The position numbers were made by a program, and so were the translations under genes. Source: an uncultured bacterium (GTDB lineage Bacteria; Bacteroidota; Ignavibacteria; Kapaibacteriales; UBA2268). Taken from it: a stretch of DNA of 64,000 nt. The DNA is taken from contig OW818676.1 of assembly GCA_942493235.1 (NCBI GenBank), positions 2,692,001 through 2,756,000 of the forward strand. Reading direction: 5' to 3'. The notes below the pieces were generated by a model. It had not been told where the DNA came from and did no database searches. It saw nothing but the letters and a program-made list of their open reading frames with translations. Below are positions 31,229 through 51,964 of this stretch, piece by piece. The stretch's first letter is position 1. Every line of letters starts with the position of its first letter.

Positions 31229-31306
31229 GTCATTCTTAACAAAGTGAAGAATCCAGAAAAATCTATATGTTCATAATTCTGGATTCTTCTTTACACTCAG
31301 AATGAC
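31229..31306. repeat. long-stem hairpin repeat, copy A (MITE/REP-like)
   Basis: gtcattcttaacaaagtgaagaatccagaa ... ttctggattcttctttacactcagaatgac. About 28-bp imperfect inverted arms related to the copies at 45534 and 49144. Confidence 0.6.
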
Positions 31307-31325
31307 GATTTGGCTATATTATTTG

Positions 31326-33310: not shown

Positions 33311-33524
33311 TTTATTCTCCGGTCTTTCTCAAATAGAAAAAATAAAATTAAGTAATTTAGAATTAAAAACCAAATCTTAAATCATTTTCTACTTGAAATA
33401 ATATTTTTAATTCCAATTATTGATATTAGACCCGTCGATTTGTATTGCCCCAAATTAAGCCACACTCCGACTTTGAAGAATTATTACTAAAGATTAACAA
33501 TCGGTTTATAGGTTCTTCGCTATT

Positions 33525-33810
33525 ATATGTGGGTAAGCAAATTAAGAAATCTTTCTTACAACAGCGTTAGCTGTTGAACATCGGTAATAAACATTGTTTA
33601 GTCCCCACACTCTTTCTCCCAGTTTTGTTGTTAAAACAAGAGAGTGGTGTTGGTGTATCTCATTATGTTACCGATGTTTAACTCCTACCGGAGTTAAGAT
33701 ATTAAATCATTGATGTTTATCAAATAATATATCCAAAATCAATATTTGATATATTAAGGTTATGATTATACTAATAATAAATATTTGTTAACCCACTTAA
33801 AATAGCGAAA
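33525..33810. repeat. ~290-bp intergenic repeat, copy 1
   Basis: About 85-90% identical by eye to the copies at 50175 and 51483. Shares the hairpins acagcgttagctgt and aactcctaccggagtt and the palindrome atcaaaaatcaatatttgatat. Confidence 0.7.
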
Positions 33811-33993
33811 CTCATTTATCTCTGTAGTTTCTTCAATGGGCTTATTTGAAAATTTTGCAATTAATAGTGTCCATTTCGGACAAAGGGTACCAGGTGTTTC
33901 GCTCAAAGGGTACCACTATAGCCAACCAAAAATTCAATACAAAAATAATAAATTCTTACCTCTTGTAGCATCTTTTTTTCTTATATTTTCTTT

Positions 33994-34704
33994 CTAAGCG
34001 AAAGGCCCTTTTAATTCCAATTTGTAAGCATTGTGAACTAATCTGTCGAGAACGGCATCTGCAATAGTAGAGTCATCAATCAGATCGTGCCATTTGCTAA
34101 TTGGCAACTGTGAAGTAACAATAGTCGCCCTCTTACCATATCTGTCTTCAATGATTTCTAAAAGGTCGAGCCGATTTTGAGTGTCAAGTTTAGCAAGCCC
34201 AAAATCATCAAGAATAAGCAAATCCTGACGTGCAATTTTTTCAATTTCTTTGATATAAGTATTGTCAGAACGTCTCATTTTCAAGCTACTTAGCAGTTTT
34301 GATAAATTGTAATAAACTGTTTTGTATCCCATAAAGCAAGCTTGATTTCCCAGAGCAGAGGCGATATGACTTTTACCAACTCCCGTTGCTCCGGTAATAA
34401 TAATATTTTCTTTCTTTTCAATAAAATCACAACTTGCAAGCCTTAAAAAAGTGTTACGGTCTAAGTTCCTTTCTGTATTGCAATTTACTTCTTCAGTGCA
34501 AGATTGATAGCGGAACTTTGCCGTTTTAATAAGATTTTGTAATTTCTTGTTTTGCCTATCGTCCCACTCGGATTGCACTAAATAATTGACTAATTCATCG
34601 TTTGTCATTTCCTGACTTGCTCTACTTGTAAGCAATACTTCGTAAGCTCTTACTATACCGTATAGTTTCATCTGGTTGAGCTTTGTAATTGTTTGATTTT
34701 GCAT
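33994..34704 (-). CDS. istB: IS21-family helper ATPase IstB
   Basis: GATGVGKSHIASALG Walker A, LLILDDFG Walker B, DnaC-like AAA+. Confidence 0.9.
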   Translation of the reverse strand: MQNQTITKLNQMKLYGIVRAYEVLLTSRASQEMTNDELVNYLVQSEWDDRQNKKLQNLIKTAKFRYQSCTEEVNCNTERNLDRNTFLRLASCDFIEKKENIIITGATGVGKSHIASALGNQACFMGYKTVYYNLSKLLSSLKMRRSDNTYIKEIEKIARQDLLILDDFGLAKLDTQNRLDLLEIIEDRYGKRATIVTSQLPISKWHDLIDDSTIADAVLDRLVHNAYKLELKGPFA

Positions 34705-34831
34705 TTTTAATTTCCTATTGTAATTGATTTATGCTTTAAATAATATTTATTGTAATTGTATTATCATTGTCGAATATTTAATTTTTTCGCGAGATATAAG
34801 TGTTTATATACTATGTACTTTGTAAATATCC

Positions 34832-36382
34832 TCATATCTTACCGTAATATTGTGCTCCTCTTATATTTTCATGATTCGGGGTTTGATATTCAATTTCATC
34901 TTCTAATGATATTTTATCATAATTGCTTGCCAAAATGTTTTTTATAGTCCTATAGTTATAACTGTTGAACTGTATCGCTCTGTTGCAGGCTCGGTTCAAT
35001 CGCTCGTAACCAACTTTCTTTCCATAACTTAATATGCCGATACAGGACTTATAAGCCTGTTCGGGATGCTTCTTAGAACTGAGTACTTCATTGATTACTG
35101 TTTCAGTTTCTGCTCCAATTGCTCTTGCCCAAGTAATGAACTTCTCAGGGCTCCATTGGCTGACAAATTGATGAGTGCTCGGTAAATGTTCGGCATTAGT
35201 CGTATATTGATATTTTCCGTAATTCCTTTGGTGATATGCGATTCGCTCTCCTTTGCAATAGATGGATAAGGCAGAGTTTGTGTATTGTATTTTCACTTTC
35301 TGCCCTATATAGCTGTAAGGAATACTATAATAATGCTCATCAACTCCGAACCATATATGAGAGTTTTTATAAACTGTTGCCTGAGAGTATCTCTTTATTT
35401 CATAGTTGATTATAGGTAATTCTTGTAGTTCTTGCTCTTCTATTTCTGTAAATAGTTCTCGTCGGCTATAGTCTTTATTTTGAAATTTAGTGTTGTTATG
35501 AATATCTAATTTTTCTAATATTCTTGTGTTTAAATCTTGAATCGAGAAAAATTGTTCATTTCTGAGTGTAGCAAATACTCTTGTATAGCTTATGTTAACT
35601 GCACTTTCTACCAATGCTTTATCTCTTGGCTTGTAACTCCTTGTCGGTAATATTGTTGTGTTATAGTGCTCAGAAAAATCAGCAAATATCATGTTTAACT
35701 CTGCTTCATATTTGCTTGCTTTAGTTACTGCGGCTTTTAAATTGTCGGGAACTATTGCCAATGGTACACCACCAAAATAGCGGAGGGCATTCTCTACTGC
35801 TTTAATAAAATGCTCTGTTTTCTGGCTCGGGACTGCCTCTATATAGGTTAATTGGCTTGCTCCTAATATTGCTATAAATACTTCAACTTCAATTACTTCC
35901 GATGTCGCTTTATTTACATACTGTAACTTCTTACCTGTAAAATCCACATACATTTTGTCGCCGGATTTGTGCTCTAAGTGCATTGTTACTTCATTGGCTT
36001 TTAACCAATTTTTATAATGTTGGCAATATTGTGTGTAATTATATCCATCTGGATGCCTGATTTTATACTCTGACCACAATAACTGCTTTGTTACTCCCGT
36101 TCGCTTTAACTCCTTTTCTATTTCGGGGCATTGCTCTAATAATATTTGAAAGCGGTCTTTACTTGGTAATTCTTGATTTCTCATCAGTATTTCAAGCTCT
36201 CCTTCACTCTTTTGCTTGATTGTGTCGTAATCTATACCTATTGATTTATATAGCAATACGTATTTTGTTACGCATTTTCGGGATATGCCTAATAGCATGC
36301 ATATTTCACGATAGCTTTTACCATCATTATGAAGTTTAATGATTTGTTTGATATTGTACATTTCTAAACCTTTGTTTGCCAT
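34832..36382 (-). CDS. istA: IS21-family transposase IstA
   Basis: N-terminal HTH, DDE integrase core (YVDFTGKKL ... AIVPDNLKAAV), 516 aa. Confidence 0.9.
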   Translation of the reverse strand: MANKGLEMYNIKQIIKLHNDGKSYREICMLLGISRKCVTKYVLLYKSIGIDYDTIKQKSEGELEILMRNQELPSKDRFQILLEQCPEIEKELKRTGVTKQLLWSEYKIRHPDGYNYTQYCQHYKNWLKANEVTMHLEHKSGDKMYVDFTGKKLQYVNKATSEVIEVEVFIAILGASQLTYIEAVPSQKTEHFIKAVENALRYFGGVPLAIVPDNLKAAVTKASKYEAELNMIFADFSEHYNTTILPTRSYKPRDKALVESAVNISYTRVFATLRNEQFFSIQDLNTRILEKLDIHNNTKFQNKDYSRRELFTEIEEQELQELPIINYEIKRYSQATVYKNSHIWFGVDEHYYSIPYSYIGQKVKIQYTNSALSIYCKGERIAYHQRNYGKYQYTTNAEHLPSTHQFVSQWSPEKFITWARAIGAETETVINEVLSSKKHPEQAYKSCIGILSYGKKVGYERLNRACNRAIQFNSYNYRTIKNILASNYDKISLEDEIEYQTPNHENIRGAQYYGKI

Positions 36383-36468
36383 TTACTGCTCAATTATTAG
36401 TTGCAAAACTAATTATCTTCACAGCTAAATAAATTCCAATTATTTATTCTTTTGGCTGGCTTAGAAGT

Positions 36469-36582
36469 GGTAACCTTTCACCGAAATGAATGGTAACCTT
36501 TCACCGAAATGGGTGGTAACCTTTCACCGAAATGGGTGGTAACCTTTCACCGAAATGGGTGGTAACCTTTGAGCGAAATATC
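36469..36582. repeat. five tandem 23-bp direct repeats (ggtaacctttcaccgaaatgggt) at the istA-proximal IS21 terminus
   Basis: Units start at 36469, 36492, 36515, 36538 and 36561. The last unit is degenerate (ggtaacctttgagcgaaatatc). Two inverted copies lie at the other terminus (33869-33916). Confidence 0.8.
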
Positions 36583-36593
36583 CAATTAATAGT

Positions 36594-36856
36594 TCGCTTT
36601 CAAAAGATAGTTTTTCCCAATTCCCGTTAAATTCATTCCAAATATCTTCTTCTAATTTACTTCCATTGACTAAGCCTAATATTCATTGTTTTTTAAGCTC
36701 AGGGACTAATCGCCCAAAATTGCCTATCTTCATATTTAAGGCAGAAGGTGAACGCCCAATAATATTTGCATACTTAATTATTGTAGGATTAGTTTTACTA
36801 CTGCTTTTAAATGGTACTTTATAATAAACATTAAAAGCAATAATAGTTTCTTAGCG
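36594..36856 (-). pseudogene. decayed HNH-endonuclease-like ORF, frameshifted, with an in-frame TGA, and split by the IS21 insertion. Its 3' tail continues at 33751-33857
   Basis: Frame reads ...KYANIIGRSPSALNMKIGNFGRLVPELKKQ*ILGLVNGSKLEEDIWNEFNGNWEKLSFESELLI. After excising the IS and one target-site duplication (TSD) copy it continues AKFSNKPIEETTEINEFRYFKWVNKYLLLV*. There is no start codon in frame. Confidence 0.35.
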
Positions 36857-36863
36857 GTTCCAA

Positions 36864-37157
36864 TTATTTTTTGCCATTTTTATTTTCTATTATATCAAGA
36901 AAATCAACACAGTAATCTCCAAGTACATCATCTAATAATTTCTTTGTAAAATCAGAACTTCCAGTTAATATTTGCGAAAACACTTCTATCCTATCATCAG
37001 TTGATAGTTGATTTAACAACTCATCATTTCTGAAGAAATTCATAAAATCATCTCTTGTAAATTCTTGATTTGTATATATCATATTTAACAATTTATAAAA
37101 ATAGAAACTTAACAATAATATATTAAAAAATACAAATAGAAAATATATTTCCCTCAA
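36864..37157 (-). CDS. hypothetical small protein, possibly the N-terminal remnant of the same decayed gene. Likely start is MIYTNQEF at 37082
   Basis: ORF ends about 20 nt before the HNH-like fragment in a different frame. The first 25 codons overlap an AT-rich terminator region. Confidence 0.3.
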   Translation of the reverse strand: MREIYFLFVFFNILLLSFYFYKLLNMIYTNQEFTRDDFMNFFRNDELLNQLSTDDRIEVFSQILTGSSDFTKKLLDDVLGDYCVDFLDIIENKNGKK

Positions 37158-37196
37158 AAAAAAAAACCTCTCTTAACCATTGTCAAGAGAGGTTTT
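37151..37196. terminator. bidirectional intrinsic terminator
   Basis: aaaaaaaaaa-cctctctt-aaccattgtc-aagagagg-tttt. A-run before and T-run after, so it can act on either strand. Lies 3' of the oxidoreductase operon. Confidence 0.6.
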
Positions 37197-37216
37197 AATA
37201 TCAAATACAAAAGAGA

Positions 37217-37756
37217 TTAGTCTTTTACGAAAGTCATACCGATTTTAATTGCTTGCTCGTTTAGAGGAATCAATTTATGGTGTCTCTCTGGTAAAGCTTT
37301 ATATAAAGCTTTAACTAATGTTTCGTAAGGAACGGTTTTGCGAGCTTTCAAGAAAGCACCCAAAATAATCATATTTAAAACTTTCATGTTTTTCAATTTG
37401 AGAGCTTCTTCACTACCGGGTACGCAAATAATAGTTATGTCTTTGCGGGTAGGAGGATTAAGTACGCTTGCACTATCATAGATAATAGTACCGCCTACTT
37501 TTACTCTTGATTCAAATTTATCAACTGAAGGCTGGTTTAGAGCTACAGCAGTATCAAACATAGAAATGATAGGGGAGCTAATCGGTTTGTCCGAAACTAT
37601 AGTTATACAATTAGCAGTACCGCCTCTCATTTCAGGACCATAAGATGGCATCCAGCAAACTTCTTTGCCTTCAATCATTCCGGCATAAGCGAGCATCATA
37701 CCCATAGAGAGAACGCCTTGTCCTCCAAATCCTGCGAAAATTGCTTCTTCTGTCAT
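37217..37756 (-). CDS. 2-oxoacid:ferredoxin oxidoreductase gamma subunit
   Basis: FGGQGV motif, 179 aa, last gene of the delta-alpha-beta-gamma cluster. Confidence 0.85.
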   Translation of the reverse strand: MTEEAIFAGFGGQGVLSMGMMLAYAGMIEGKEVCWMPSYGPEMRGGTANCITIVSDKPISSPIISMFDTAVALNQPSVDKFESRVKVGGTIIYDSASVLNPPTRKDITIICVPGSEEALKLKNMKVLNMIILGAFLKARKTVPYETLVKALYKALPERHHKLIPLNEQAIKIGMTFVKD

Positions 37757-37757
37757 A

Positions 37758-38537
37758 TTACTTTACCTCCGGAACTTTAATGTCACCAAGCGGATAGAAA
37801 GGAATCATCTTTTCTTCCACGAATTTATTAGCATCAAGAGCACTTATTTTCAAATTAGAAGGACAGTTAGAAACTATCTCAACTAAGCAGTATCCCAAAC
37901 CTTTTTTCTGATATTCGATAGCATTTTTAATTGCTTTTTTAGCTTTACGAACATTAGAAGGAGTGTGAACTGACTGACGAGTAACATACGCTACGCCGGG
38001 CAAATGAGAAAGTAACTCGCTGATTTTAAGCGGATAGCCCATAGTATCGCAGTCTCTTCCATAAGGAGAAGTAGTAGTAATCATACCCTCTAAAGAGGTA
38101 GGAGCCATCTGACCGGAAGTCATACCATAGATACCATTATTGATAAATATAGTTAAGATGTTCTCGCCACGGTTAGCTGCATGCAAAGTTTCGGCAGTAC
38201 CGATAGCGGCTAAGTCGCCATCGCCTTGGTACGAGAATACAATTTTCTCAGGGAATAATCTTTTAACTGCTGTAGCACAAGCACAAGCTCTACCGTGAGC
38301 AGCTTGCTCCATATCAACATTTAAATAGTTATAAGCAAATACCGAGCAACCAACCGGAGCTACGCCGATAGTCTCGCCCTCTATACCCATCTCTTGAATA
38401 ACTTCTGCTAAAATTTTATGAACAGTACTGTGACCACAGCCTGGACAATAATGGAAAGCAGCATCTTTCAAAGTGGTAGGTTTAGCATATACTAAATTTT
38501 CAGGGCATACTATAGAATTATTTGTCATATCGCTCAT
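37758..38537 (-). CDS. 2-oxoacid:ferredoxin oxidoreductase beta subunit (TPP-binding)
   Basis: CPGCGH, GDGD TPP-binding motif, 259 aa. Confidence 0.88.
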   Translation of the reverse strand: MSDMTNNSIVCPENLVYAKPTTLKDAAFHYCPGCGHSTVHKILAEVIQEMGIEGETIGVAPVGCSVFAYNYLNVDMEQAAHGRACACATAVKRLFPEKIVFSYQGDGDLAAIGTAETLHAANRGENILTIFINNGIYGMTSGQMAPTSLEGMITTTSPYGRDCDTMGYPLKISELLSHLPGVAYVTRQSVHTPSNVRKAKKAIKNAIEYQKKGLGYCLVEIVSNCPSNLKISALDANKFVEEKMIPFYPLGDIKVPEVK

Positions 38538-39607
38538 TATTTGCCTCCATTGATATATACTTTTTCAAAATGCTCTAAGATTTCTTCAGGTGAAGGAATC
38601 ATGCCGCCCATTCTACCGTAGAATTCAACTTGAGTTGCACCGTTAATAGATAAACGAACGTCTTCGACCATTTGTCCGGCATTCATTTCTACATCGAGTA
38701 CGCCTTTAACTTTTTTGCCGGTTTGATTGTAAATCTCAGTTGGGAAAGGATACAAAGTAATCGGACGGATAAGACCAATTTTATAACCTTTAGCTCTTCC
38801 AAGCTCCATAGCTTTAGCACAAATTCTTGCACCCAAGCCAAAACCGGTAAATAAATATTCTGCATCTTCTAAATTAGCAGTTACATATCTAACTTCATCT
38901 TTTTCAACTACTCTATATTTAGCTTGAAGACGGTGATTAATTTCTTCCATTTTCTCCGGTTGAATATGAAGAGAAGTAACATAACGAGCTTCTTTTCTAT
39001 CGCCTTTGCCATTAGTAGCCCATTCAGGGAACTCAGTTTTTCTTGGCATTTGGTCGAATAATTCAACTTTTTCCATCATTTGACCGATAGCACCATCAGC
39101 CAAAATCATAACAGGATTTCTATATTTTTCAGCTAATTCAAAACCTAATTTAACGAAATCAACCATTTCTTGAACAGAAGAAGGAGCCAAAGTGATTAAT
39201 TTATAATCGCCGTGACCGCCGCCTTTAACAGCTTGAAAATAGTCTGATTGTGATGGTTGGATAGTGCCTAAGCCCGGTCCTCCACGGCTAACATTAGCCA
39301 AAACGCAAGGCAATTCAGCACCTGCTATATAAGAAATACCTTCTTGCATCAAGCTCATTCCCGGGCTGGAAGAAGTAGTCATAACTCTTTTGCCTGTACA
39401 GGCACCGCCATAAATCATGTTAATTGCAGATACTTCGCTCTCAGCTTGCAATACTACCATTCCGGTTCTTTTATTTGCGTCAATTGCAAGATATTCAAGT
39501 ACTTCGGACTGCGGAGTAATAGGGTATCCAAAATAAGCATCGCATCCAGCTCGTATCATAGCTTCTGCTAATGCTTCATTTCCCTTCATTAATTTTATTT
39601 CGCCCAT
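38537..39607 (-). CDS. 2-oxoacid:ferredoxin oxidoreductase alpha subunit
   Basis: YPITPQSE motif, 356 aa. Start overlaps the downstream gene. Confidence 0.88.
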   Translation of the reverse strand: MGEIKLMKGNEALAEAMIRAGCDAYFGYPITPQSEVLEYLAIDANKRTGMVVLQAESEVSAINMIYGGACTGKRVMTTSSSPGMSLMQEGISYIAGAELPCVLANVSRGGPGLGTIQPSQSDYFQAVKGGGHGDYKLITLAPSSVQEMVDFVKLGFELAEKYRNPVMILADGAIGQMMEKVELFDQMPRKTEFPEWATNGKGDRKEARYVTSLHIQPEKMEEINHRLQAKYRVVEKDEVRYVTANLEDAEYLFTGFGLGARICAKAMELGRAKGYKIGLIRPITLYPFPTEIYNQTGKKVKGVLDVEMNAGQMVEDVRLSINGATQVEFYGRMGGMIPSPEEILEHFEKVYINGGK

Positions 39608-39647
39608 TGCGTCTCCTTAAAATTCTTTTGGGTATTTGTAAATTCAA

Positions 39648-39872
39648 TTATTTATTAATTTTTCTATAAACTGTAATTGCCGCATCGGGGCAAACTAATG
39701 AACAGCTTGCACAGCCGGTGCAGTTCTGGTTAATCGTAATAGCATATCTGTAGCCATGTTGATTAATTGTGCCTGATAGACCAATTGTCTTTTCCGGGCA
39801 AGCATTGATGCATACTTCGCATCCTTTGCACTTTTCAATATCGACTATAATTTCGCCTACTGCTTTTGCCAT
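39648..39872 (-). CDS. 2-oxoacid:ferredoxin oxidoreductase delta subunit (2x[4Fe-4S] ferredoxin)
   Basis: CKGCEVCINACP and CTGCASCSLVCP cluster motifs, 74 aa. Confidence 0.8.
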   Translation of the reverse strand: MAKAVGEIIVDIEKCKGCEVCINACPEKTIGLSGTINQHGYRYAITINQNCTGCASCSLVCPDAAITVYRKINK

Positions 39873-40466
39873 ATTATTTCCTTCTTCTTATTAAAGTATT
39901 TATCTTTAAATGTACATTATTTATACAAACTCGTATAAAATATTATTTCTTAAATATTTCATACATAAAAAAAATGCAAGTTAATAACTTTAAACGAGAT
40001 TTCAAATTATTTTATAAAAATTCTTTGAACTTTTATATTATGTAATACTCGCTTTTAATTGAAATTATTAAAGATAATGATGTTGTAAATATTTTATTAT
40101 TTTATATTTATCTGATATGCTATAATAAAAATATTACTTGAGCAACAATTTAAAACTAAGACAATATTTGAACCCTGAATAAGTAATTTAACAACTTTGG
40201 TAATTCTAAACAAGAAAATTGGTATTGAATTATTTAGAAAACAAAAAGCAAATCCGATACTCTTATTAAATTCAAAGTTATTCATTATAGTTAAGTTGAT
40301 ACTGTACTGATTACTTTCTCAAAAGCAATTTATTAACAGTATTATTTTTTATTGTTATTTTTAATATATTTTTGTAATTTAACAATCCTTAATTGAAAGC
40401 CATTAGATTAACTATATAGAAAATCATATAATTGCTAATAATAAATAAATGAAATAATCAGATACT

Positions 40467-41915
40467 ATGCTTTTTAACTCAATAGATTTTGCAATATTTT
40501 TACCGATTGTTTTTATACTTTATTGGTTTGTAACTAATCGAAATTTAAGACTGCAAAACTTTCTTATCGTAGCATCGAGTTATTTGTTTTATGGCTGGTG
40601 GGATTGGAGATTCTTATCTTTATTGTTGTTCAGTTCTTTAGTTGACTTTTTTGTTGGTTGCGGCTTATCAAATCAAGAAAATCCTGTTAAAAGAAAGCTG
40701 CTTATCTCCATCAGTATTATTGTTAATCTCGGATTTCTCGGTTTCTTCAAGTATTTCAACTTCTTTGCTGATAATTTCGCGACAGCATTTTCATTTTTCG
40801 GTATGGATATAAATCCGGGTTCATTAAACGTAATTCTGCCGGTCGGAATCAGTTTCTATACATTTCAGATACTTAGTTATACAATTGACGTATATAAGCG
40901 AAAACTCGAACCGACTAAGGATTTCATTGCATTTTCGGCATTTGTAAGCTTTTTCCCTCAGTTAGTTGCCGGACCAATTGAAAGAGCGACCCATTTACTA
41001 CCTCAATTTTACCGAAAACGTACTTTTGATTATTCCAAAGCAGTTGATGGAATGCAGCAGATACTATGGGGGCTATTTAAAAAGATTGTAATTGCAGACA
41101 ACTGTGCCGAATTCGCCAATTTGATTTTCAATAACTCATCAAATTATTCAGGTAGCACATTAGTGCTGGGTGCTTTATTCTTTACGATTCAAATCTATGC
41201 GGACTTTTCTGGATATTCGGATATTGCAATTGGAACCTCTCGCCTCTTTGGCTTTGAGCTGATGCGTAATTTTAATTTCCCTTACTTTTCGAGAGATATT
41301 GCCGAGTTCTGGAGACGCTGGCATATTTCGCTATCTACTTGGTTCAGAGATTATTTATACATTCCAATTGGCGGTAGCAAAGGCAGTCTACGGACTAAAG
41401 TTCGTAATACCTTTATTATATTTATAGTAAGCGGTTTTTGGCATGGTGCAAATTGGACTTTTGTTGTCTGGGGGGCATTAAATGCAATCTATTTCTTACC
41501 GCTACTATTGACCAATAGTAATCATAAAAATATAGGTATTGTAGCAGAGGGAAAGTTGTTCCCTACATTAAAAGAATTCTTTATGATACTAATAACTTTC
41601 GGACTTACGGTATTTGCATGGATATTTTTCAGGGCAGAAAATATGACACATGCTATAAATTATATTTCCGGAATATTCTCTATGTCATTATTTATTATTC
41701 CTCAATTTGAAGGAATTGAAAAAGCGATAACAAGCCTACTTTTGGTAATATTTTTTATGCTTATTGAATGGAATGGCAGAGAGCAGCAGTATGCAATTGC
41801 TCAATTAGGAATCAGATGGAGGCTACCTCTTAGATATACATTTTATTATGCTTTGATTTTAATAATAGTATTCTTCGGCGGTAAAGAACAACAATTTATT
41901 TATTTTCAATTTTAA
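40467..41915 (+). CDS. MBOAT-family membrane O-acyltransferase (AlgI/DltB/PatA-like)
   Basis: Multi-TM. WRRWHISLSTWFRDYLYIPIGGS and FWHGANW contain the conserved MBOAT His. Confidence 0.85.
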   Translation: MLFNSIDFAIFLPIVFILYWFVTNRNLRLQNFLIVASSYLFYGWWDWRFLSLLLFSSLVDFFVGCGLSNQENPVKRKLLISISIIVNLGFLGFFKYFNFFADNFATAFSFFGMDINPGSLNVILPVGISFYTFQILSYTIDVYKRKLEPTKDFIAFSAFVSFFPQLVAGPIERATHLLPQFYRKRTFDYSKAVDGMQQILWGLFKKIVIADNCAEFANLIFNNSSNYSGSTLVLGALFFTIQIYADFSGYSDIAIGTSRLFGFELMRNFNFPYFSRDIAEFWRRWHISLSTWFRDYLYIPIGGSKGSLRTKVRNTFIIFIVSGFWHGANWTFVVWGALNAIYFLPLLLTNSNHKNIGIVAEGKLFPTLKEFFMILITFGLTVFAWIFFRAENMTHAINYISGIFSMSLFIIPQFEGIEKAITSLLLVIFFMLIEWNGREQQYAIAQLGIRWRLPLRYTFYYALILIIVFFGGKEQQFIYFQF

Positions 41916-41932
41916 GCTATGAATTGTAAATT

Positions 41933-42838
41933 ATGAAAAAGTTTCTATATAAATTCTTACTCTTTTTATTACCACTGATAGCATTATTTGTTTTTATTGA
42001 GTTTTCTTTACGAAATATTGACAGTATTTACGAATTAAAACGCAATGGTATAATTACTCAAAGCGATAGTATAGAAATACTAATTATGGGCAATTCGCAT
42101 GCAAATGATGGGATAAACCCGACCTGCTTCAGGCTTAATGCTTATAGCTTAGCCAATGCTACTCAATCGCTTTTATATGATAAAGAATTGCTATTAAAAT
42201 ATCTTCCCAAACTAAAAAATCTAAAATATGTTATTTTCAGCATAGATTATCCTTCATTATATTGGGGATTTATCGAAGAGAGAGATTTCTTCTACTATAA
42301 TTATTTCGGAATAAATATTAGAAATAAGAGCTATTTAAAAGAAAATCTTTCTTTCTTTTTCTATGTCTATTCACCATTAACTTCAATAAAACTTTTGTAT
42401 AGTAACACCTTTATTAATAAGAAAAACAAAATGATTAATGGCTGGACAGGTTACGATTTCACTAATTACAATACACTAACAAGAGAATATGCTGTCAAAA
42501 GAGTAGAAAATTTCAATAATGATATAAAAAATTCAAAAGAGCATAATTATATTTGCAAGGAATTTGAGTCTTTGATTATTTATCTATTAGATAGAAATAT
42601 TACTCCGATATTAATTACTCCGCCCTGCCATAAGTATTTAACTGAATGCTTAGATAGCAATATCCAAAAAATTAATTCTGATTACATTCAATATTTAACC
42701 CAAAAATATAATTTAAAGTATTTGAATTCCGAAGCAGACACTGCATTTAAGTCCAATCATTTTGTTAATGTTGACCATCTGAATAAGATTGGAGCCGAAA
42801 AATATACTAAAATGCTCGATAGACTTCTCTTTGAATAA
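41933..42838 (+). CDS. membrane-anchored partner protein of the MBOAT acyltransferase (AlgJ/DltD/PatB-like role is inferred)
   Basis: N-terminal TM. Gene sits 17 bp downstream of the MBOAT gene. MGNSHANDG resembles an SGNH-type block. No firm family match. Confidence 0.35.
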   Translation: MKKFLYKFLLFLLPLIALFVFIEFSLRNIDSIYELKRNGIITQSDSIEILIMGNSHANDGINPTCFRLNAYSLANATQSLLYDKELLLKYLPKLKNLKYVIFSIDYPSLYWGFIEERDFFYYNYFGINIRNKSYLKENLSFFFYVYSPLTSIKLLYSNTFINKKNKMINGWTGYDFTNYNTLTREYAVKRVENFNNDIKNSKEHNYICKEFESLIIYLLDRNITPILITPPCHKYLTECLDSNIQKINSDYIQYLTQKYNLKYLNSEADTAFKSNHFVNVDHLNKIGAEKYTKMLDRLLFE

Positions 42839-42911
42839 ATTCAAACACTGTTTTGACCAAAATATTTGATAAATTTGTATTGAATTATTAATTTAATTTT
42901 CGGAGCTATTA

Positions 42912-45290
42912 TTGAACTTCATTACTAAGAAATATCACTATACCCTAAAAAAAATCATTTATTTATTTAATAATCGTTTTTTTAAAAATGAGTTTATTGA
43001 TTTACTTGCCAAATATACAATAGTATTTTCAGTTTTCTGGGGTATATTGTTTCTATTTTCAATCATTATAATACCGATTAATACAGAGATAGATTACTCT
43101 CAAGAAATTTACTCCGATAATGGCGAACTGATTCACGCATTTCTCAGTAATGACCATAAGTGGCGATTAAAAACTGATTTGGATATGGTCTCTCCCCTTC
43201 TAATCAAGTCAATTATAAATAAAGAAGATAAATATTTTAACTATCATTGCGGATATAATCCCTATTCAATATTAAAGGCATTTTTTAATAATTTTACTTC
43301 AGGCAAAGTTAATTCTGGAGCTTCAACAATTTCTATGCAAGTAATCAGATTAATTGAGAAAAGAGACCGAACATATATCAATAAATTTATCGAAATATTT
43401 AGGGCTGTTCAATTAGAAATATTCCATTCAAAAGATGAAATACTTGAGCTGTACTTGAGCCTTCTGCCCTATGGCGGGAATATTGAAGGAGTGGAGTCGG
43501 CTTCTTATATTTACTTTAATACTCCACCATCTCGTTTAAGCTTAGCCCAATCGGTAACGCTTGCTATTATCCCGAATAACCCTAATTTATATAGAATTGA
43601 CCGTTCTACAAATGTAATGAATTTCAGAAATAAATGGCTGAAGATATTTAAAACAAAAAACACATTTGAAGCAAATGCAATTGATTATGCCCTTAGTGAG
43701 AGTATTGTTAGTGCCCGGTACGAGATGCCAAACCTTGCCCCACATTTCTGCGATTTTATAAAATCAAATTTCCACGATAAACTTGTAAATTCCAGCATAA
43801 ATTTAAGAGCACAAAACGAAATTGCAAATATATTAAAGAATTACAACAACATATTGAAATCAAAAGGAATTACTAATTCCTCAGCACTTGTAATAGATAA
43901 TTATACTCATAAAGTTATTGCATATTGCGGTTCAGTCGATTATAATGATACTATTTCCGAAGGTCAGAATAATGGAATTACTGCCGAGCGTTCACCCGGC
44001 TCTACATTAAAAGCCGCCCTCTATGCTCTGGCTTTCGATAAAGGTCTTTATACACCTAAATCAATAATCAATGATATTCCTACCGAATTTAACGGATATA
44101 TACCCGAAAATTTCGATTTAAAATTCTACGGTCCGGTTAGTGTTGAATTTGCTTTGTTCAGTTCATTGAATATTCCGGCAGTTAAAGTATTACAAAAAAT
44201 TGGATTAGATAATTTTCTTCAAATATTAAAATTCGGAGGATTCAAATCAATTAGCAAAGACTCAAAAAAGTTAGGATTATCAATGATTCTTGGTGGCTGT
44301 ACTGCTAATTTATTTGAGCTAACTCGATTGTTCTCGGCTTTTGCCTGCCAAGGTAAATTATATAATATTAGCTATTTCAGTAATAAAACTGATGATAATT
44401 TTGTTCAGTTATTTTCGCCCGAAGCTTCTTTTCTTATTAATGATATTTTATCTGTGAAAGACAATCGCATTGAAACTCAAGCAATTAAGATACGTAATAT
44501 CAAAATTCCAGATATTGCATGGAAGACAGGTACTTCGTTTGGAAAACGCGACGCATGGACTATAGGATTTAATTCTCGATACACCGTTGGAGTTTGGTCT
44601 GGTAATTTCAATGGTAACGGTTCTCCTTTTATTATCGGTTCTGAAATTGCTTTACCGATAGTCTGCGATATATTTAATTCATTACCAAATACAAATACAA
44701 ATACAAAAAAAATCAAGTTAACCAAAAATCTTGCTCATCGATATATCTGCAGATCCTCCGGAAAAGTACCGAATGAATTCTGTACAGAATTGGTTCAGGA
44801 TTATTATATCGGTAAAGTTACAAATTCTGAAAAATGTGATATTCATAAGCAAATATTTTTATCAAGCGATTCAAGTGTCGAATACTGCACCGGTTGCTTA
44901 CCCGATACAGGCTATATAAAAGCTGTATTTCCGGTATTTGAACCTTCGCTTACTATGTGGTTCGAGCAAAACAGCATCAACTACAGGAGTATTCCAAATC
45001 ATAATCTCGAATGCAAGGCTAAATTCACCGGCGAAGGACCGATTATTATCTCTCCAAGCTCAAATTATGTTTATTATATTGAGCAGGGGGCTGAACAGGA
45101 AATATCACTTCAAGCAATTAATAGAATTAATAAAGGAAGTATTTATTGGTATATAGACGGTACATTTTATAATAAAAGCAAGACCGGAGAAAAGATATTC
45201 TTTAAGCCGGAGAAAGAATATTATACTATCAAATGTATTGATTTCCAAGCAAGAGAAAGTAGTATTAATGTTAAGATTATATTTTATTAG
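42912..45290 (+). CDS. pbpC: penicillin-binding protein 1C (GT51 glycosyltransferase plus transpeptidase), TTG start
   Basis: EDKYFNYHCGYNP and GASTISMQV GT51 motifs. Transpeptidase SxxK (STLK) and KTGT. PBP1C-type C-terminal domain. 792 aa. Confidence 0.8.
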   Translation: MNFITKKYHYTLKKIIYLFNNRFFKNEFIDLLAKYTIVFSVFWGILFLFSIIIIPINTEIDYSQEIYSDNGELIHAFLSNDHKWRLKTDLDMVSPLLIKSIINKEDKYFNYHCGYNPYSILKAFFNNFTSGKVNSGASTISMQVIRLIEKRDRTYINKFIEIFRAVQLEIFHSKDEILELYLSLLPYGGNIEGVESASYIYFNTPPSRLSLAQSVTLAIIPNNPNLYRIDRSTNVMNFRNKWLKIFKTKNTFEANAIDYALSESIVSARYEMPNLAPHFCDFIKSNFHDKLVNSSINLRAQNEIANILKNYNNILKSKGITNSSALVIDNYTHKVIAYCGSVDYNDTISEGQNNGITAERSPGSTLKAALYALAFDKGLYTPKSIINDIPTEFNGYIPENFDLKFYGPVSVEFALFSSLNIPAVKVLQKIGLDNFLQILKFGGFKSISKDSKKLGLSMILGGCTANLFELTRLFSAFACQGKLYNISYFSNKTDDNFVQLFSPEASFLINDILSVKDNRIETQAIKIRNIKIPDIAWKTGTSFGKRDAWTIGFNSRYTVGVWSGNFNGNGSPFIIGSEIALPIVCDIFNSLPNTNTNTKKIKLTKNLAHRYICRSSGKVPNEFCTELVQDYYIGKVTNSEKCDIHKQIFLSSDSSVEYCTGCLPDTGYIKAVFPVFEPSLTMWFEQNSINYRSIPNHNLECKAKFTGEGPIIISPSSNYVYYIEQGAEQEISLQAINRINKGSIYWYIDGTFYNKSKTGEKIFFKPEKEYYTIKCIDFQARESSINVKIIFY

Positions 45291-45533
45291 CTGCCAAATA
45301 ACGCTGAAGCATGGGGTTGAATAAATAAGGTCTATAATTTGCCAATAGCTTTTAATATTTACACAGCCAATAAATCCACGATTCGATATCAATTAGATTT
45401 TTCAAATAGCTAATGAAAAAAATTAAGTTTACTGCAAAAGTCCAAAATATTCATTTACTATTAATTTTTCAAAGGTTTCAAGCTACTAAGTGCATATCAA
45501 GAGGTTGTATATAAAGTAACAATATTGTTAATT

Positions 45534-45613
45534 CGTTATTCTGAGCGAAACGAAGAATCCAGAATTATCAACATTTAGCTTTATCTGGATTCTTCACTGC
45601 GTTCAGAATGACT
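45534..45613. repeat. long-stem hairpin repeat, copy B
   Basis: cgttattctgagcgaaacgaagaatccaga-attatcaacatttagctttatc-tctggattcttcactgcgttcagaatgact. Its loop is identical to that of copy C. Confidence 0.65.
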
Positions 45614-45751
45614 ACTTTTTAGTCAGCCTCTTGAATAAATGGAAATTGAAAATTAGATAGTTTTGCAACAGACTTAAATTACACAAAAAAGTAGAATACG
45701 AAATTTTAAGATTGCGTATTCTACTTTATAATAATCGAGAAACATTAAGGC

Positions 45752-47479
45752 TTAAATCGCATTAGATTCTGCTGATTTTGCTTTCTTTTTTGAAAAATAA
45801 GAATAAAGTGTTTCTATAGCTACTAATACCGAAAGTATAATCAAAAGCATTGATACCCAAGGTACTGACGGATGTCCTTGACCAAGAATCCATCCCTTAC
45901 GTACATCAATTATTAATGCCCAATTCGACATAATAAACATCACAATAGCAGGAATGAACGAGACTAACCATACTTTTGATTTTTTACGAGTATTAACTAA
46001 CCAAATTGTAATACCAATTAGTGCTAAAGCAGCTAAAAGCTGATTAGAGGCTCCAAAAGTTCCCCAGAATATTTTCCAAGCCGGTACATGATTACCTTTA
46101 GCATCAGTCATTGTTTGAAAAATAAAGAATACCGGAACACCTGCAGAAAGAATAGTACCGAGAATCGTACCTAATTTATTTTTTAATCCTGTCAATTCTT
46201 CGACTATATATCTACCTAAACGGGTACATACATCAAGAGTATCATACACAAAAGTAGTAAAAGCCATTAATCCAAAAGTAATTCCAAAAGTAGCAGATAC
46301 ACCGATTAACTCCATAAATCTTCCTATACCTGATGCGTAAATAAAGTTTGGAGCTTTAGTTATCATCTCTGAATCTTGAGATAGAATCATTACGCAAGCA
46401 ATAGAAACTACTGCTACCATACCTTCGAGAAGCATAGCTCCATATCCGATAGGTTTGGCATCTGATTCTTTTTCAAGCTGTTTGCATGTAGTGCCTGACG
46501 AAACTAATGCATGAAATCCCGAGCATGCCCCACACGCTATAGTAATGAACAATACCGGAAACATAGGGAACCAAAAAGTAGAGCCGAAACCACCATTGGG
46601 ATCTATATTGATAAACGCCGGATAACTAATAGCATATCCTCCAAATACTAATCCTATAGCTGCAATTATTAACGAAGCGTACAAGAAATATCCACCGATA
46701 GCACCTCTTGGTTGAAGCAGTAACCACATTGGTAAAACCGATGCAATTAAGCAATATATTAAAATAATTAATCCCCATGCTTTTTGCGAAGTTGCTATAT
46801 CGTCAATTGGTAAATTCACCGGGAAGAATTGACCTGCCCAAATTGCAACACCTACAAGCGGAAGGAAAATTAATACGGCAAGTCCTTCTTTTAGTTTGGC
46901 ATATTTCATTAGAAGTCCCATTATTATCGGCAGGATAAGGTACATAATCGAAGACGAAGCTATAGCACCACCACTTACACTTTCACCTGATTCAAGCTTT
47001 ACCATTCCTACAAAGGAGCTTGCAGTTATATCGGTAAAAGCTATAATTACATAAACCAGCGAAATCCAAACGAATATCATAAATAGTATCCACGCCCTAT
47101 TAGATACATTAACCTTGATTACTTCTGTTATCGAATTTGCCTTATGGCGTACCGAGGCTATTAATGAGCCCATATCGTGGACTCCTCCGATAAATATAGA
47201 TCCGACTAATACCCAGAGCAGAGCCGGTGCCCAGCCAAACATTACACTTGCCAAAATTGGACCATTAATAGGACCGGCAGCAGCGATTGCTGAAAAATGC
47301 TGACCGAGTAACATCCCCTTTTTAGCTGGTACATAGTCTATACCATCATTATTTAGTACGGCGGGAGTAGTTTGATTGTCATCAAGATTAAATACTTTTT
47401 TACTTAGATAGCGTCCGTAAGTTAAATAAGCAAGGAATAAGATTATTCCTGCTCCAATCACAACAAATAATACATTCAT
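45752..47479 (-). CDS. cstA: carbon starvation protein A (CstA-family transporter)
   Basis: 575 aa, about 16 TM. N-terminal MNVLFVVIGAGIILFLAYLTYGRYL. CstA-like throughout. Confidence 0.85.
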   Translation of the reverse strand: MNVLFVVIGAGIILFLAYLTYGRYLSKKVFNLDDNQTTPAVLNNDGIDYVPAKKGMLLGQHFSAIAAAGPINGPILASVMFGWAPALLWVLVGSIFIGGVHDMGSLIASVRHKANSITEVIKVNVSNRAWILFMIFVWISLVYVIIAFTDITASSFVGMVKLESGESVSGGAIASSSIMYLILPIIMGLLMKYAKLKEGLAVLIFLPLVGVAIWAGQFFPVNLPIDDIATSQKAWGLIILIYCLIASVLPMWLLLQPRGAIGGYFLYASLIIAAIGLVFGGYAISYPAFINIDPNGGFGSTFWFPMFPVLFITIACGACSGFHALVSSGTTCKQLEKESDAKPIGYGAMLLEGMVAVVSIACVMILSQDSEMITKAPNFIYASGIGRFMELIGVSATFGITFGLMAFTTFVYDTLDVCTRLGRYIVEELTGLKNKLGTILGTILSAGVPVFFIFQTMTDAKGNHVPAWKIFWGTFGASNQLLAALALIGITIWLVNTRKKSKVWLVSFIPAIVMFIMSNWALIIDVRKGWILGQGHPSVPWVSMLLIILSVLVAIETLYSYFSKKKAKSAESNAI

Positions 47480-47990
47480 TAAATAACTCCAAGATAATTA
47501 TAATTCTAATATCATTTTCAACTTATATTATAATGAGACATTTGGCATCAACCCGCGGTTTTAGCCGCGATGACGGCTATATTTGATATATCCTATTTTA
47601 TGTAGGAAATGATCTTAATTTTGCTTTATTCAGTAAATCAATTATATTAAATTATTTATTACTATAAACATAGCTAATTCAATCATAATTTTACAATATA
47701 TATACCAAAGATATGCCATATCAAAAGTTATGCCATACAAATTACAAAAATATTTTATTACTACCAAAGTTAAATTTGGAATGCTAATCGGATATAATAC
47801 CGATATTAAGGAGTAAAATCGTATATAACAATATATTTATCTCAATTGCTATTTATATTTGGTGTTAGTCATCTATACTGAGGCTTAGGAGGTTGCTTAT
47901 AACTTCATTTACCGATTCTTAATCTGGAATTTATTTTCCAACCCACGCAGAGCGTGGGCTGGAGGTGATTTGGGATAAGCTAAATGTATT

Positions 47991-49028
47991 TCAAAAATAT
48001 TTCTTTTTAAAAAATAAAGCTACATTTACTAAAGCAATTAATGCAGGCACTTCAACTAATGGACCAATTACTGCTGTAAAAGCTTCACCAGAATTTATTC
48101 CGAATACAGAAATCGCTACTGCTATAGCCAGTTCAAAATTATTGCTTGCTGCTGTAAATGATAAAGTAGCAGTTTTGGCATATCCGGCGTTTGATTTCTT
48201 GCCCATATAGAAAGATACCAAAAACATAATTATAAAGTAAATCAAAAGCGGAATAGCAATTCTAATCACATCAAGCGGAATATTTATAATTACATTTCCT
48301 TTTAATGAGAACATTACTATTATTGTAAATAATAATGCGATTAGAGTAATCGGGCTGATTTTCGGAATGAATACACCATGATACCACTCTTTGCCTTTTA
48401 ATCTAACTAAAATCAATCGAGTTAAAAATCCGGCTATAAATGGTATTCCCAAATATACAAATACAGATTCAAAAATTTGCCCCATAGTTATGTCAACTGT
48501 AAAGGTCTGTAAGCCAAAATATTTTGGTAAAACAGTAATAAAGAAATACGCATAAACCGAGAAGAAAAGCACTTGGAATATTGAATTAAATGCTACTAAT
48601 CCTGCGGCATATTCTGTATCACCTTTTGCCAGATCATTCCAAACAATCACCATTGCAATACATCTGGCTAATCCTATTAAAATCAAGCCTGTCATATATT
48701 CGGGATAATCCTGTAGAAATACTACTGCGAGAATAAACATCAGTACCGGACCAATTATCCAGTTCTGAACTAATGATATTACAAGCACTTTAGTATTTTT
48801 AAATACATCGCCAAGTTCTTCATACTTGACTTTTGCAAGCGGCGGATACATCATCAGAATAAGCCCTACTGCAAGTGGAATATTTGTAGTACCTGAACTG
48901 AACTGATTCCAGAAGTCGGAAATATTCGGAAAGAAGTATCCCCATGATACTCCAATAGCCATAGCGAGAAATATCCATAGAGTTAAGTATCTATCCAAAA
49001 AGCTTAGTTTTTTTGTAATTTTTTCCAT
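47991..49028 (-). CDS. acr3: arsenite efflux transporter, ACR3 family
   Basis: 345 aa, 10 TM, N-terminal [20 protein letters not shown] typical of ACR3. Confidence 0.88.
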
Positions 49029-49143
49029 TATTTTTTATTTTAATAGTGATAAAATAAGTATGAAATATTTGATTAATCACCAATATCAACTTCTCTTAGT
49101 CCTTTGTATCAGGGTTGTCCCCAAAGTTATATTTAAGTCAAAT

Positions 49144-49222
49144 CGTCATTCTGAGTGCAACGAAAAATCCGGAATTATCAACATTTAGCTTTATCCGGAT
49201 TTTTGCTTCGTTCCTAATGACA
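49144..49222. repeat. long-stem hairpin repeat, copy C
   Basis: cgtcattctgagtgcaacgaaaaatccgga-attatcaacatttagctttatc-ccggatttttgcttcgttcctaatgac. Shows the compensatory atccaga/tctggat to atccgga/tccggat change relative to copy B. Confidence 0.65.
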
Positions 49223-49288
49223 AATTTGGCAAAGCACTGTTTAAATGGGTTAAGCATTTGAACAGTGTACTAATTCAACAATATTATC

Positions 49289-50095
49289 TTATTTATATGC
49301 TTTTACAGTTACACTTAAAATATCAGCCCCATTTGTTTTGAAATCTAAAATTTCTTCATCAGAGAGATAAGCCTTGAGTATAATTTCAGGTATATCAATT
49401 TTCTTTGATTTTAATATTTCAATATTCTTAAATCCGTTTTCTGAAATAACTTTCAAATAATCTTCTTTTTGTAAAGCTCCGGCAACACAGCCGGCGTACA
49501 TTTCTGCGGCATTTGCAATATTTGGAGGCAATTGCCCGGATAATACAATATCAGAAACACAGAAATGAGCATTATTTTTGAGCACTCTATAGATTTCACT
49601 AAATGCTTTGTTTTTATCCGGTACTAAATTCAGAACACAATTACTAATGATTACGTCAACGCTATCTGATTTCACAGGTATATCTTCAATATCACCTTTT
49701 ACAAATTCTACATTTGTATAACCGAGCATTTTGCAATTTTCTTTTGCTTTGTTAAGCATCTCTTCAGTAAAGTCTAAGCCAATCACCTTACCTAATCTAC
49801 CGGTTTCTCTGCGAGCTATGAATACATCATTGCCGGCACCGGAGCCGAGGTCTAATACCGTATCGCCCTGCTTAATTGCTGCAAATTCAGTTGGCATACC
49901 ACAGCCCAGTCCTAAATCTGCCTCGGAGTAATATCCGTCAACTTTAGCATAGTCGTCGCTCATTATATTATAATTTGTCGGCTTAGCTGTTCCTGTACCG
50001 CAACATGAGCATCCGCAGTTTTGATTTGATTTCGCTATCTCTGCATATTTTTCATTTACTGTTTTTTTAATTTCTTCATTGGTATTCATTTTCAT
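49289..50095 (-). CDS. arsM: arsenite S-adenosylmethionine methyltransferase
   Basis: N-terminal CGCSCCG cysteine cluster, SAM-binding VLDLGSGAGND, downstream conserved Cys. 268 aa. Confidence 0.85.
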   Translation of the reverse strand: MKMNTNEEIKKTVNEKYAEIAKSNQNCGCSCCGTGTAKPTNYNIMSDDYAKVDGYYSEADLGLGCGMPTEFAAIKQGDTVLDLGSGAGNDVFIARRETGRLGKVIGLDFTEEMLNKAKENCKMLGYTNVEFVKGDIEDIPVKSDSVDVIISNCVLNLVPDKNKAFSEIYRVLKNNAHFCVSDIVLSGQLPPNIANAAEMYAGCVAGALQKEDYLKVISENGFKNIEILKSKKIDIPEIILKAYLSDEEILDFKTNGADILSVTVKAYK

Positions 50096-50174
50096 TTCCT
50101 TAATCTTTATTATTAATATTATTATTTATTATAATTAAAATGTATTATTTTAAATATTTATCGTTTTTTACTAT

Positions 50175-50462
50175 TATGTGTAAGTACGCAAATAAATTAA
50201 TCTTTCTTACAACGGCGTTAGCTGTTGAACATCGGTAATAAATATTATTTAGTTCCCATACTCTTTCTTCTCTTTTTGTTGTTAAAACAAGAAAGTGTTG
50301 GTGGAGTATCTCATTATATTACTGATGCTTAACTCCTACCGGAGTTAAAATTTAAAATCAAAGATATTAATCCAATAAGATATCAAAAATCAATATTTGA
50401 TATATAAGGATTTTCTTTATACTTATAACAATTATTTGCTAACCCACTTAAAATAGCGAAGA
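50175..50462. repeat. ~290-bp intergenic repeat, copy 2
   Basis: See copy 1. Lies between arsC and arsM. Confidence 0.7.
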
Positions 50463-50503
50463 CCCATATTTATTATTATATTAAAATGTATTTTTATAGA
50501 TAT

Positions 50504-50926
50504 TTATTTTTTTAAAATATTATTATTATAAAATATTGTAAAATCTCTTTTGATTTCATCTCTTACTCGTCTGAATTCAGATAATATTTCTGTTTCAGTT
50601 CCTTTTGCTTCTGCGGGGTCATCAAATCCTATATGTAATCTATTTGATACTTTACCTGTAAATACAGGGCATACTTCTTTAGCATGGTCGCAGACAGTAA
50701 TTACATAATCGAACTCATGGTCTAAGAATTTATCAACCATTTTCGGGTAGTTCGAGCTGATGTCTATCCCGATTTCTGCCATTACTTTGATAGCTTTAGA
50801 GCTGACTTTTTCTGCCGGATTAGTTCCGGCGGAATAAACTTCAATACTGCTATCCAATGACTTGACTATTCCTTCTGCCATCTGAGAACGGCATGAATTA
50901 CCAGTGCATAGTATTAGTATTTTCAT
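50504..50926 (-). CDS. arsC: arsenate reductase, low-molecular-weight phosphatase family
   Basis: ILILCTGNSCRSQMAEG P-loop, 140 aa. Confidence 0.85.
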   Translation of the reverse strand: MKILILCTGNSCRSQMAEGIVKSLDSSIEVYSAGTNPAEKVSSKAIKVMAEIGIDISSNYPKMVDKFLDHEFDYVITVCDHAKEVCPVFTGKVSNRLHIGFDDPAEAKGTETEILSEFRRVRDEIKRDFTIFYNNNILKK

Positions 50927-50944
50927 TTTTTCCTTATTAAATAA

Positions 50945-51289
50945 TTAAACATTGCAATTATTATTTCTATTGATTTTATCAATTTTCGATAAATCCTCTA
51001 TTACTTGCTCATCGCTATTAAGCCACATCTGAAGCATAAGTAATGTTTGTTGAATTTTAGTATCGGTCGTTTCCATATTGATAGAATAGAATACCCACTT
51101 CCCCACTTTAGAATCAAGTAAAAAACCGGCTTCTTTTAATATTGATAAATGATTAGAAACAGTTGACGGCGATAAATCAAGATTATCTGTTATTTCGCAT
51201 ACACACAGTGTTTTACGAAGCAACATCATAATTATTCTTAACCTATTTTTGTCTGATAAGCAGTTGAATATTTTTATTGTATCTTTCAT
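50945..51289 (-). CDS. arsR: ArsR-family metalloregulator
   Basis: Winged HTH with CVCEITD metal-binding motif and SNHLSILKEAGF. Confidence 0.8.
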   Translation of the reverse strand: MKDTIKIFNCLSDKNRLRIIMMLLRKTLCVCEITDNLDLSPSTVSNHLSILKEAGFLLDSKVGKWVFYSINMETTDTKIQQTLLMLQMWLNSDEQVIEDLSKIDKINRNNNCNV

Positions 51290-51482
51290 ATATTGTCCAA
51301 TATCTTCTAATAATATCTAATAATTCTATATTGTCATTTCGTCGTACATCGAAATTATAAAAATTATTATTTATTTGCAAATTATTTTTTTCTTATTGCA
51401 AAAATAATTATTTATTTCTTTGAGAATTGTCGAAATTGTTAATATTTAGCGGTTATAAAACTATAAATGGTTCTTTGATATT

Positions 51483-51769
51483 ATGTGTGGATAAGCAAAT
51501 AAAGAAATCTTTCTTACAACAGCGTTAGCTGTTGAACATCGGTAATAAATATTGTTTAGTTCCCACACTCTTTCTTCTCTTTTTGTTACTAAAACAAGAA
51601 AGTACTGGTGGAGTTTCTCATTATGTTACCGATGTTTAAATCCTACCGGAGTTAAAATTTAAAATCAAAGATGTTTATCTAATAAGATATCAAAAATCAA
51701 TATTTGATATATAAGGATTTTCTTTATACTAATAACAATTACTTACTAACCCACTTTAAATAGCGAAGA
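51483..51769. repeat. ~290-bp intergenic repeat, copy 3
   Basis: See copy 1. Nearly identical to copy 2. Lies between arsR and the first serpin gene. Confidence 0.7.
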
Positions 51770-51964
51770 CTCGAAATATTATTGTTAACCATAATTCTTT
51801 TTTCTCAGTGCTAATGCGTGTGATTCAATGGAGAGGTCCGGCATTTGTACTAAAACAGTAGTTTTTACACCACCTTATGTAGAGCTAGAATTAAAAAAAA
51901 ATAAGCTTAAAAAAAACAATGTTTCAATTAAGCTTATTTCGTTCTTTCTCAACATGTTCTGTAT

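Follow-up and report, generated by a model that had tools for sequence, protein, structure and literature searches.

Miniature inverted-repeat transposable elements (MITEs) mobilised by insertion sequences (ISs) of the ISL3 family have already been described. ISL3-family Tn7546 has the inverted repeat (IR) GGGTCTTCGGA and an 8-bp duplication (PMC9782665). In Microcystis aeruginosa PCC 7806, a short, non-coding MITE of 187 nt has terminal IRs starting GGCTCTTCG that were matched to ISL3 elements, 8-nt duplications and an interior that forms stem-loops; it sits in or near genes, alters expression and was observed to move in a laboratory lineage (PMC11448079). Here we analyse a repeated unit of 303–304 bp found in 64,000 nucleotides (hereafter the window) of the 4.23-Mb chromosome of an uncultured Kapaibacteriales bacterium (GTDB UBA2268; assembly GCA_942493235.1, contig OW818676.1, positions 2,692,001 to 2,756,000). 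Judged from its ends, flanks and lack of coding capacity, the unit is most probably a non-autonomous, non-coding ISL3-family MITE, and it would add another member to those mobilised by ISL3 elements.

Three copies of a non-coding unit bounded by inverted repeats

MAFFT alignment and a repeat finder identified three copies of the unit in the window, near 33.5, 50.2 and 51.5 kb. They share one orientation, have pairwise identities of 83.6–90.1% and lie between unrelated flanks. Similarity between copies breaks off on both sides at the tips of imperfect IRs of 27–32 bp (GGTTCTTCGCTATT.T..GTGGGTAAGCAAAT), and these terminal IRs were used to fix the limits of each copy. The three copies of about 290 bp reported by an initial annotation of the window are thus present, with limits that lie ~14 bp further left and 3–10 bp further right; the terminal IRs themselves, and an 8-bp duplication around copy 2, had been missed. 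The corrected features are as follows.

33511-33813, plus strand: putative MITE copy 1, 303 bp
50162-50465, plus strand: putative MITE copy 2, 304 bp, between arsC and arsM
51469-51772, plus strand: putative MITE copy 3, 304 bp, with the arsR start 179 bp downstream
33511-33542, plus strand: left terminal IR of copy 1, GGTTCTTCGCTATTATATGTGGGTAAGCAAAT, 24/26 against the consensus right-end IR of ISL3 elements
50162-50193 and 51469-51500: equivalent left terminal IRs of copies 2 and 3
50434-50465, minus strand: right terminal IR of copy 2, GGGTCTTCGCTATTTTAAGTGGGTTAGCAAAT read inward, 23/26
33782-33813 and 51741-51772: equivalent right terminal IRs of copies 1 and 3
50154-50161 and 50466-50473: 8-bp target duplication flanking copy 2, ATATTTAT, perfect (8/8)

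A perfect 8/8 duplication at this fixed offset has a chance of 2e-4 in the window, and no equally clean 8-bp duplication was recognisable at the flanks of copies 1 and 3, a point that weighs against the MITE assignment and is taken up below. Erosion has reached at least one tip of every copy: the right tip of copy 1 is degraded (..GCGAAACTC), and copy 2 combines an eroded left IR (16/26 against the consensus terminus) with a well-preserved right one. Outside its 8-bp duplication, copy 2 is also flanked by a 28-nt near-duplicate (24/28; 50134-50161 and 50480-50507), which suggests that the target at the 3' end of arsC already held a tandem duplication of ~34 bp.

All six frames of the unit contain stops, no open reading frame (ORF) common to the copies was found, and a search for a transposase remnant within it returned nothing beyond a best tblastn match to ISL3 transposases at E = 0.19, in agreement with the earlier view that no protein-coding potential is conserved. 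The copies share their orientation relative to downstream minus-strand genes, as first described; with the corrected ends, the gene starts lie 200 bp (an nfeD-like gene, copy 1), 66 bp (copy 2) and 179 bp (copy 3) away, instead of 80–215 bp. Among the gene labels initially given, arsM (as arsM-like), arsC and arsR hold; nfeD relies on a weak NfeD match (E = 0.014) and on the adjoining SPFH gene.

The ends of the unit match those of ISL3 elements

To place these ends, we searched 596 Gb of genomes and the JGI metagenomes with a degenerate terminus pattern, the source chromosome being outside the scan. The scan returned 44 public matches, 32 of which carry a GG.(T/C) prefix that the pattern did not demand (GG-prefixed terminus, GGYTCTTCGCTATTTTATGTGGGTAA), and the terminus GGCTCTTCGCTATTTTATGTGGGTAA proved common to very diverse bacteria and archaea. 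At 15 of these 32 loci, the reading frame of an ISL3 transposase runs into the terminus and stops at one identical nucleotide within it (...GLPT*). Pfam searches identified DDE_Tnp_ISL3 at one locus (L002, 3e-61) and the full Zn_ribbon_ISL3, HTH_Tnp_ISL3 and DDE_Tnp_ISL3 architecture at two others (L030 and L024). Complete elements with both IRs measured 1300, 1302, 1381 and 1435 bp, and the L030 element is flanked by the perfect 8-bp duplication TCTTTTTT.

Autonomous ISL3 elements with this terminus (such as those in L030, L024, L039 and L007) share their terminal 26–34 nt with the unit and, like copy 2, have 8-bp duplications in AT-rich DNA (the window itself has a G+C content of 32.6%). They differ from the unit in their length of 1.3–1.44 kb, in encoding a Zn-ribbon/HTH/DDE transposase of 404–438 amino acids, and in the position of its stop codon within the right IR. 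Compared with the ISL3 consensus terminus, the six ends of the unit match at 24, 23, 21, 20, 20 and 16 of 26 positions, both ends resembling the right-end IR type of ISL3 elements, and the left end of copy 1 matches the IR of L007 at 31 of 34 positions.

Coding-free short derivatives with ISL3-type ends and perfect 8-bp duplications were also found in other metagenomes (L019, 219 bp, and L027, 321 bp), and the following MITEs with an ISL3-type terminus were recorded, all in unrelated metagenomes.

L019, 1457-1675: short derivative with ISL3-type terminus
L027, 2043-2363: short derivative with ISL3-type terminus
L021, L022 and L036: 176-bp units
L040: further MITE with ISL3-type terminus

Two of them are bounded by the perfect 8-bp duplications AATATTAA and ATTATTTT. 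L027 retains the first transposase codons and is thus a plain internal-deletion derivative. None of these MITEs shares its interior with the window unit. In a Verrucomicrobiae metagenome-assembled genome (L003), an IS1380-type transposase (DDE_Tnp_1_4, E = 5e-133) lies ~1.2–2.7 kb inside an ISL3-type terminus, an arrangement that may be an IS inside another IS or a solo terminus.

Taken together, IRs that correspond to bona fide ISL3 ends, the 8-bp repeat around copy 2, the absence of coding capacity and the independent insertion sites argue for an ISL3-type MITE. The initial annotation had advanced a MITE as one of three options for a mobile element that was not a riboswitch; both of these general statements were borne out, and the MITE option was right, with the terminal IRs now adding the family. 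Compared with the Microcystis MITE, the unit resides in another host phylum, is 304 rather than 187 bp long and is similar in sequence only in the terminal motif, and its own mobility is inferred where that of the Microcystis element was observed.

The proposed mechanism would be that of a passenger: ISL3-type terminal IRs enclose a non-coding, palindrome-rich interior of 240 bp, and an ISL3 DDE transposase supplied in trans, presumably by an ISL3 element elsewhere in the source chromosome, would bind both IRs, excise or copy the unit and insert it into AT-rich DNA by an 8-bp staggered cut, leaving an 8-bp duplication. The three copies are probably immobile fossils by now, given their divergence of 10–16% and the erosion of one tip or more in each. 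Further searches for copies or ends were negative in the datasets covered: blastn of the unit and of its 32-nt terminus had no match among PLSDB plasmids, an internal 20-mer had none in metagenomes, the terminal IR pattern had none in viral contigs, and two internal 18-mers gave only 18–24-nt chance or coding matches in viral contigs.

A palindromic and well-conserved interior

All motifs named in the initial annotation are present, namely the hairpin ACAGC-GTTA-GCTGT, the long-range complement CATCGGTAATA/TATTACCGATG, the hairpin AACTCC-TACC-GGAGTT and the palindrome ATATCAAAAATCAATATTTGATAT. The two short hairpins (5 and 6 bp) and the long-range complement turn out to be parts of a single internal IR of 28–30 nt, each arm of which consists of a 6-bp hairpin followed by AACATCGGTAA. 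The interior also holds a central hairpin and the separate 24-bp palindrome, and is palindromic at several levels.

51518-51545, plus strand: left arm of the internal IR, AACAGC-GTTA-GCTGTT-GAACATCGGTAA (6-bp hairpin and conserved tail); equivalents at 33560-33587 and 50211-50240
51626-51653, minus strand: right arm of the internal IR, consensus AACTCC-GGTA-GGAGTT-AAACATCGGTAA, with GGATTT for GGAGTT in copy 3; equivalents at 33668-33695 and 50317-50346
51687-51710: near-perfect 24-bp palindrome; equivalents at 50380-50403 and about 33729-33752

Several observations weigh against a simple ISL3-type MITE. Alongside the missing duplications at copies 1 and 3, the 64-kb window contains no ISL3 transposase, and the interior of the unit is matched by no ISL3 element found, similarity ending at ~30–34 nt. 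This interior is moreover somewhat better conserved than the terminal IRs (17 of 64 columns variable), the reverse of what neutral decay alone predicts: one block of 44 columns, which includes the left arm, has a single variable column (permutation scan, P = 0.018), and variable columns are rarer in the stems than outside them (6/70 versus 54/234, P = 0.006). With three sequences, the difference may reflect a weak constraint, gene conversion among the copies, mutation templated by quasi-palindromes or simply chance.

Alternative explanations for the unit

The pattern of conservation could also mean that the interior, and especially the near-invariant 44-bp block with the left hairpin arm, is selected in its own right, as a structured RNA or protein-binding module that an ISL3 MITE carries and that was co-opted to act on the downstream genes. 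We give this a small chance; if true, it would explain how the interior outlasted the transposition ends and how both arms kept their hairpins on different stems (AACAGC/GCTGTT and AACTCC/GGAGTT, which differ at two stem positions and are each still self-complementary). A related reading takes the unit to be, or to carry, a small or cis-acting structured RNA with hairpins under selection, the MITE ends being its vehicle only; this appears very improbable. It can draw on the low variability of the stems, on the self-complementarity of both arms, on a fold significantly more stable than that of shuffled sequences, and on three one-sided stem changes that are G-U compatible on the plus strand. 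Yet the minus strand (-70.0 kcal/mol, z -4.7) folds as well as the plus strand or better (-66.3 kcal/mol, z -4.1, for the plus strand), which is the symmetric outcome expected of DNA inverted repeats. Across the 35 pairs of the four helices initially proposed, 29 are invariant, 3 wobble-compatible, 3 broken (A-C in copy 2, A-G in copy 3, C-T in copy 1) and none compensatory. The two wobble-compatible changes reported for copy 2 are real, but across the stems such changes are matched in number by pair-breaking ones (3 and 3), which the initial annotation had overlooked, and the two carry no weight, as about half of all stem transitions are wobble-compatible on a given strand. In the RNAalifold consensus fold, covariation contributes unfavourably (+5.79) and 1 pair in 96 is compensatory, on three sequences and hence with very low power. 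An Rfam covariance-model search, the check proposed with the initial annotation, gave 0 matches in the whole window at gathering scores and only noise (E > 2) over copies 2 and 3 in permissive mode, consistent with its statement that no known RNA family could be assigned, and no promoter or terminator common to the copies was found. A structured-RNA reading, including the small RNA gene family first suggested, is thus not supported, and the hairpins are the DNA-level inverted symmetry typical of MITEs.

A domesticated portable cassette of promoter, operator or protein-binding palindromes controlling the gene downstream of each copy, another of the options first raised, would account for both the shared orientation and the conserved interior; the best-conserved block is the one nearest the downstream gene, the left IR of copy 1 contains an outward-facing TATAAT, and the 24-bp palindrome resembles a dimer-binding site. 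An identical orientation relative to the downstream minus-strand gene in 3/3 copies has, however, a 1/4 probability by chance, the three downstream genes are functionally unrelated, no sigma-70-like promoter is common to the copies (match counts are at background), the copies do not share a Bacteroidota-type -7 motif (TAnnTTTG), and no intrinsic or canonical terminator was found in the unit. In addition, the promoter-like sites of arsR itself and a palindrome that recurs in a relative (L015) all lie outside copy 3. The portable-operator reading is not supported and a cassette seems quite unlikely. There is an equally slight prospect that the interior (~50-185) is a separate REP/REPIN-type palindromic element that became nested in an ISL3 MITE before this family dispersed. 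Its two inverted units of hairpin plus conserved tail, ~80 nt apart, concentric with the central hairpin and off-centre to the outer repeats, have that appearance; against this, the arm unit is confined to the three copies, the rest of the 64 kb holding neither single units nor doublets, the inner module has no flanking duplication, and no RAYT-like gene was seen among the annotated ORFs, in which no search was aimed at RAYT. Lastly, copies 2 and 3 are direct repeats that enclose arsR and arsC (50466-51468), as would the ends of a MITE-flanked composite transposon carrying these genes. A perfect duplication of its own flanks copy 2 on each side, the outer flanks of the pair do not match (ATATTTAT versus GAAATATT), and arsR-arsC-arsM-acr3 is the ancestral order in L015, so that arsRC was not brought in separately; on duplications and synteny we rejected this composite, which is extremely improbable. 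An ISL3-family MITE thus remains our preferred identity for the unit.

Copy 2 lies within an arsenic resistance operon

The window carries genes for an arsM-like methyltransferase, an LMWPc arsC and ArsR. In the nearest available relative (L015; 72% ArsM identity), the genes arsR-arsC-arsM-acr3 are separated by gaps of 17, 13 and 0 nt, compared with 18, 408 and 260 nt in the window, where the second gap contains copy 2 and the third a different hairpin repeat. The relative, in which arsC and arsM are 13 nt apart with no unit between them, is too diverged for an empty site to be compared at the nucleotide level; its compact operon, set against the 408-nt gap here, nevertheless indicates that copy 2 is an insertion within the operon. 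The original observation that copy 2 splits arsC from arsM is thereby confirmed.

Intergenic MITEs with inverted-repeat ends are also known from Neisseria (Correia/NEMIS elements) and enterobacteria (ERIC elements); these are transcribed together with adjacent genes and form long hairpins. They involve other transposase families and other duplications than the unit, and their RNase III processing, promoters and IHF sites were shown experimentally. By analogy, copy 2 is likely co-transcribed and folded in the same manner within the ars transcript; if so, its RNA would form a stable structure of about -70 kcal/mol, as predicted by folding, between arsC and arsM. Given that copy 2 has no canonical terminator or promoter, its effect on the operon is most likely read-through, neutral or mildly polar.

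Copy 3 is placed beyond the promoter/operator region of arsR. The 179 bp between the arsR start and copy 3 contain promoter-like sites and the palindrome ATTTCGATGTACGACGAAAT (~51336-51355), which is conserved upstream of arsR in the relative (TTTCGATGTGCGTCGAAT), where the unit is absent, and which is a candidate ArsR operator. We also considered the palindromes of the unit as ArsR operators and rejected them: the palindrome conserved in L015 has an unrelated sequence and is located outside copy 3.

The hairpin repeat in the third gap belongs to a second, unrelated family of intergenic repeats, each with a long hairpin of ~85 nt (GTCATTCTGAG..GAAGAATCCAGAA..loop..TTCTGGATTCTTC..CTCAGAATGAC). 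The minus-strand RNA of its third copy has a z of -3.75, and this copy has CCGGA/TCCGG compared with CCAGA/TCTGG in another copy, with both sides of the stem changed.

31221-31311: second repeat family, first copy
45503-45617: second repeat family, second copy
49113-49204: second repeat family, third copy, between arsM and acr3

Neighbouring features

Copy 1 is separated by 46 bp and an 8-bp duplication from an unrelated, complete IS21-family element.

33868-36584, minus strand: complete IS21-family element with its own termini
34832-36382, minus strand: istA of the IS21 element
33994-34704, minus strand: istB of the IS21 element
36467-36581: five tandem 23-bp terminal repeats of the IS21 element
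33860-33867 and 36585-36592: 8-bp target duplication of the IS21 element, ATTAATAG, perfect

This element looks like a recent insertion next to copy 1. The possibility that copy 1 is part of it was rejected, as the IS21 element has its own termini and duplication and copy 1 ends at 33813, outside it.

Two further features lie elsewhere in the window. Serpins are uncommon in bacteria; tandem paralogous serpin genes (51965-53170 and 53232-54455) here encode proteins of 401 and 407 amino acids (Pfam Serpin, E about 1e-100) and share patches of 70–96% nucleotide identity. An intergenic tandem pair of 47-bp repeats, 72% identical, is found at 12388-12481.

Implications

With these results, a previously unexplained repeat gains a definite identity, most probably as a non-autonomous ISL3-family transposon. 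For annotators, this calls for caution: the 408-nt gap in the arsR-arsC-arsM-acr3 operon should be read as an insertion rather than as regulatory sequence. The unit would raise a new biological question only if its conserved interior turned out to be functional. In bacterial and archaeal metagenomes, full-length elements and several MITEs unrelated to one another have a single ISL3 terminus, GGCTCTTCGCTATTTTATGTGGGTAA, in common, and this terminus can be used as a practical search key for MITEs of this class.

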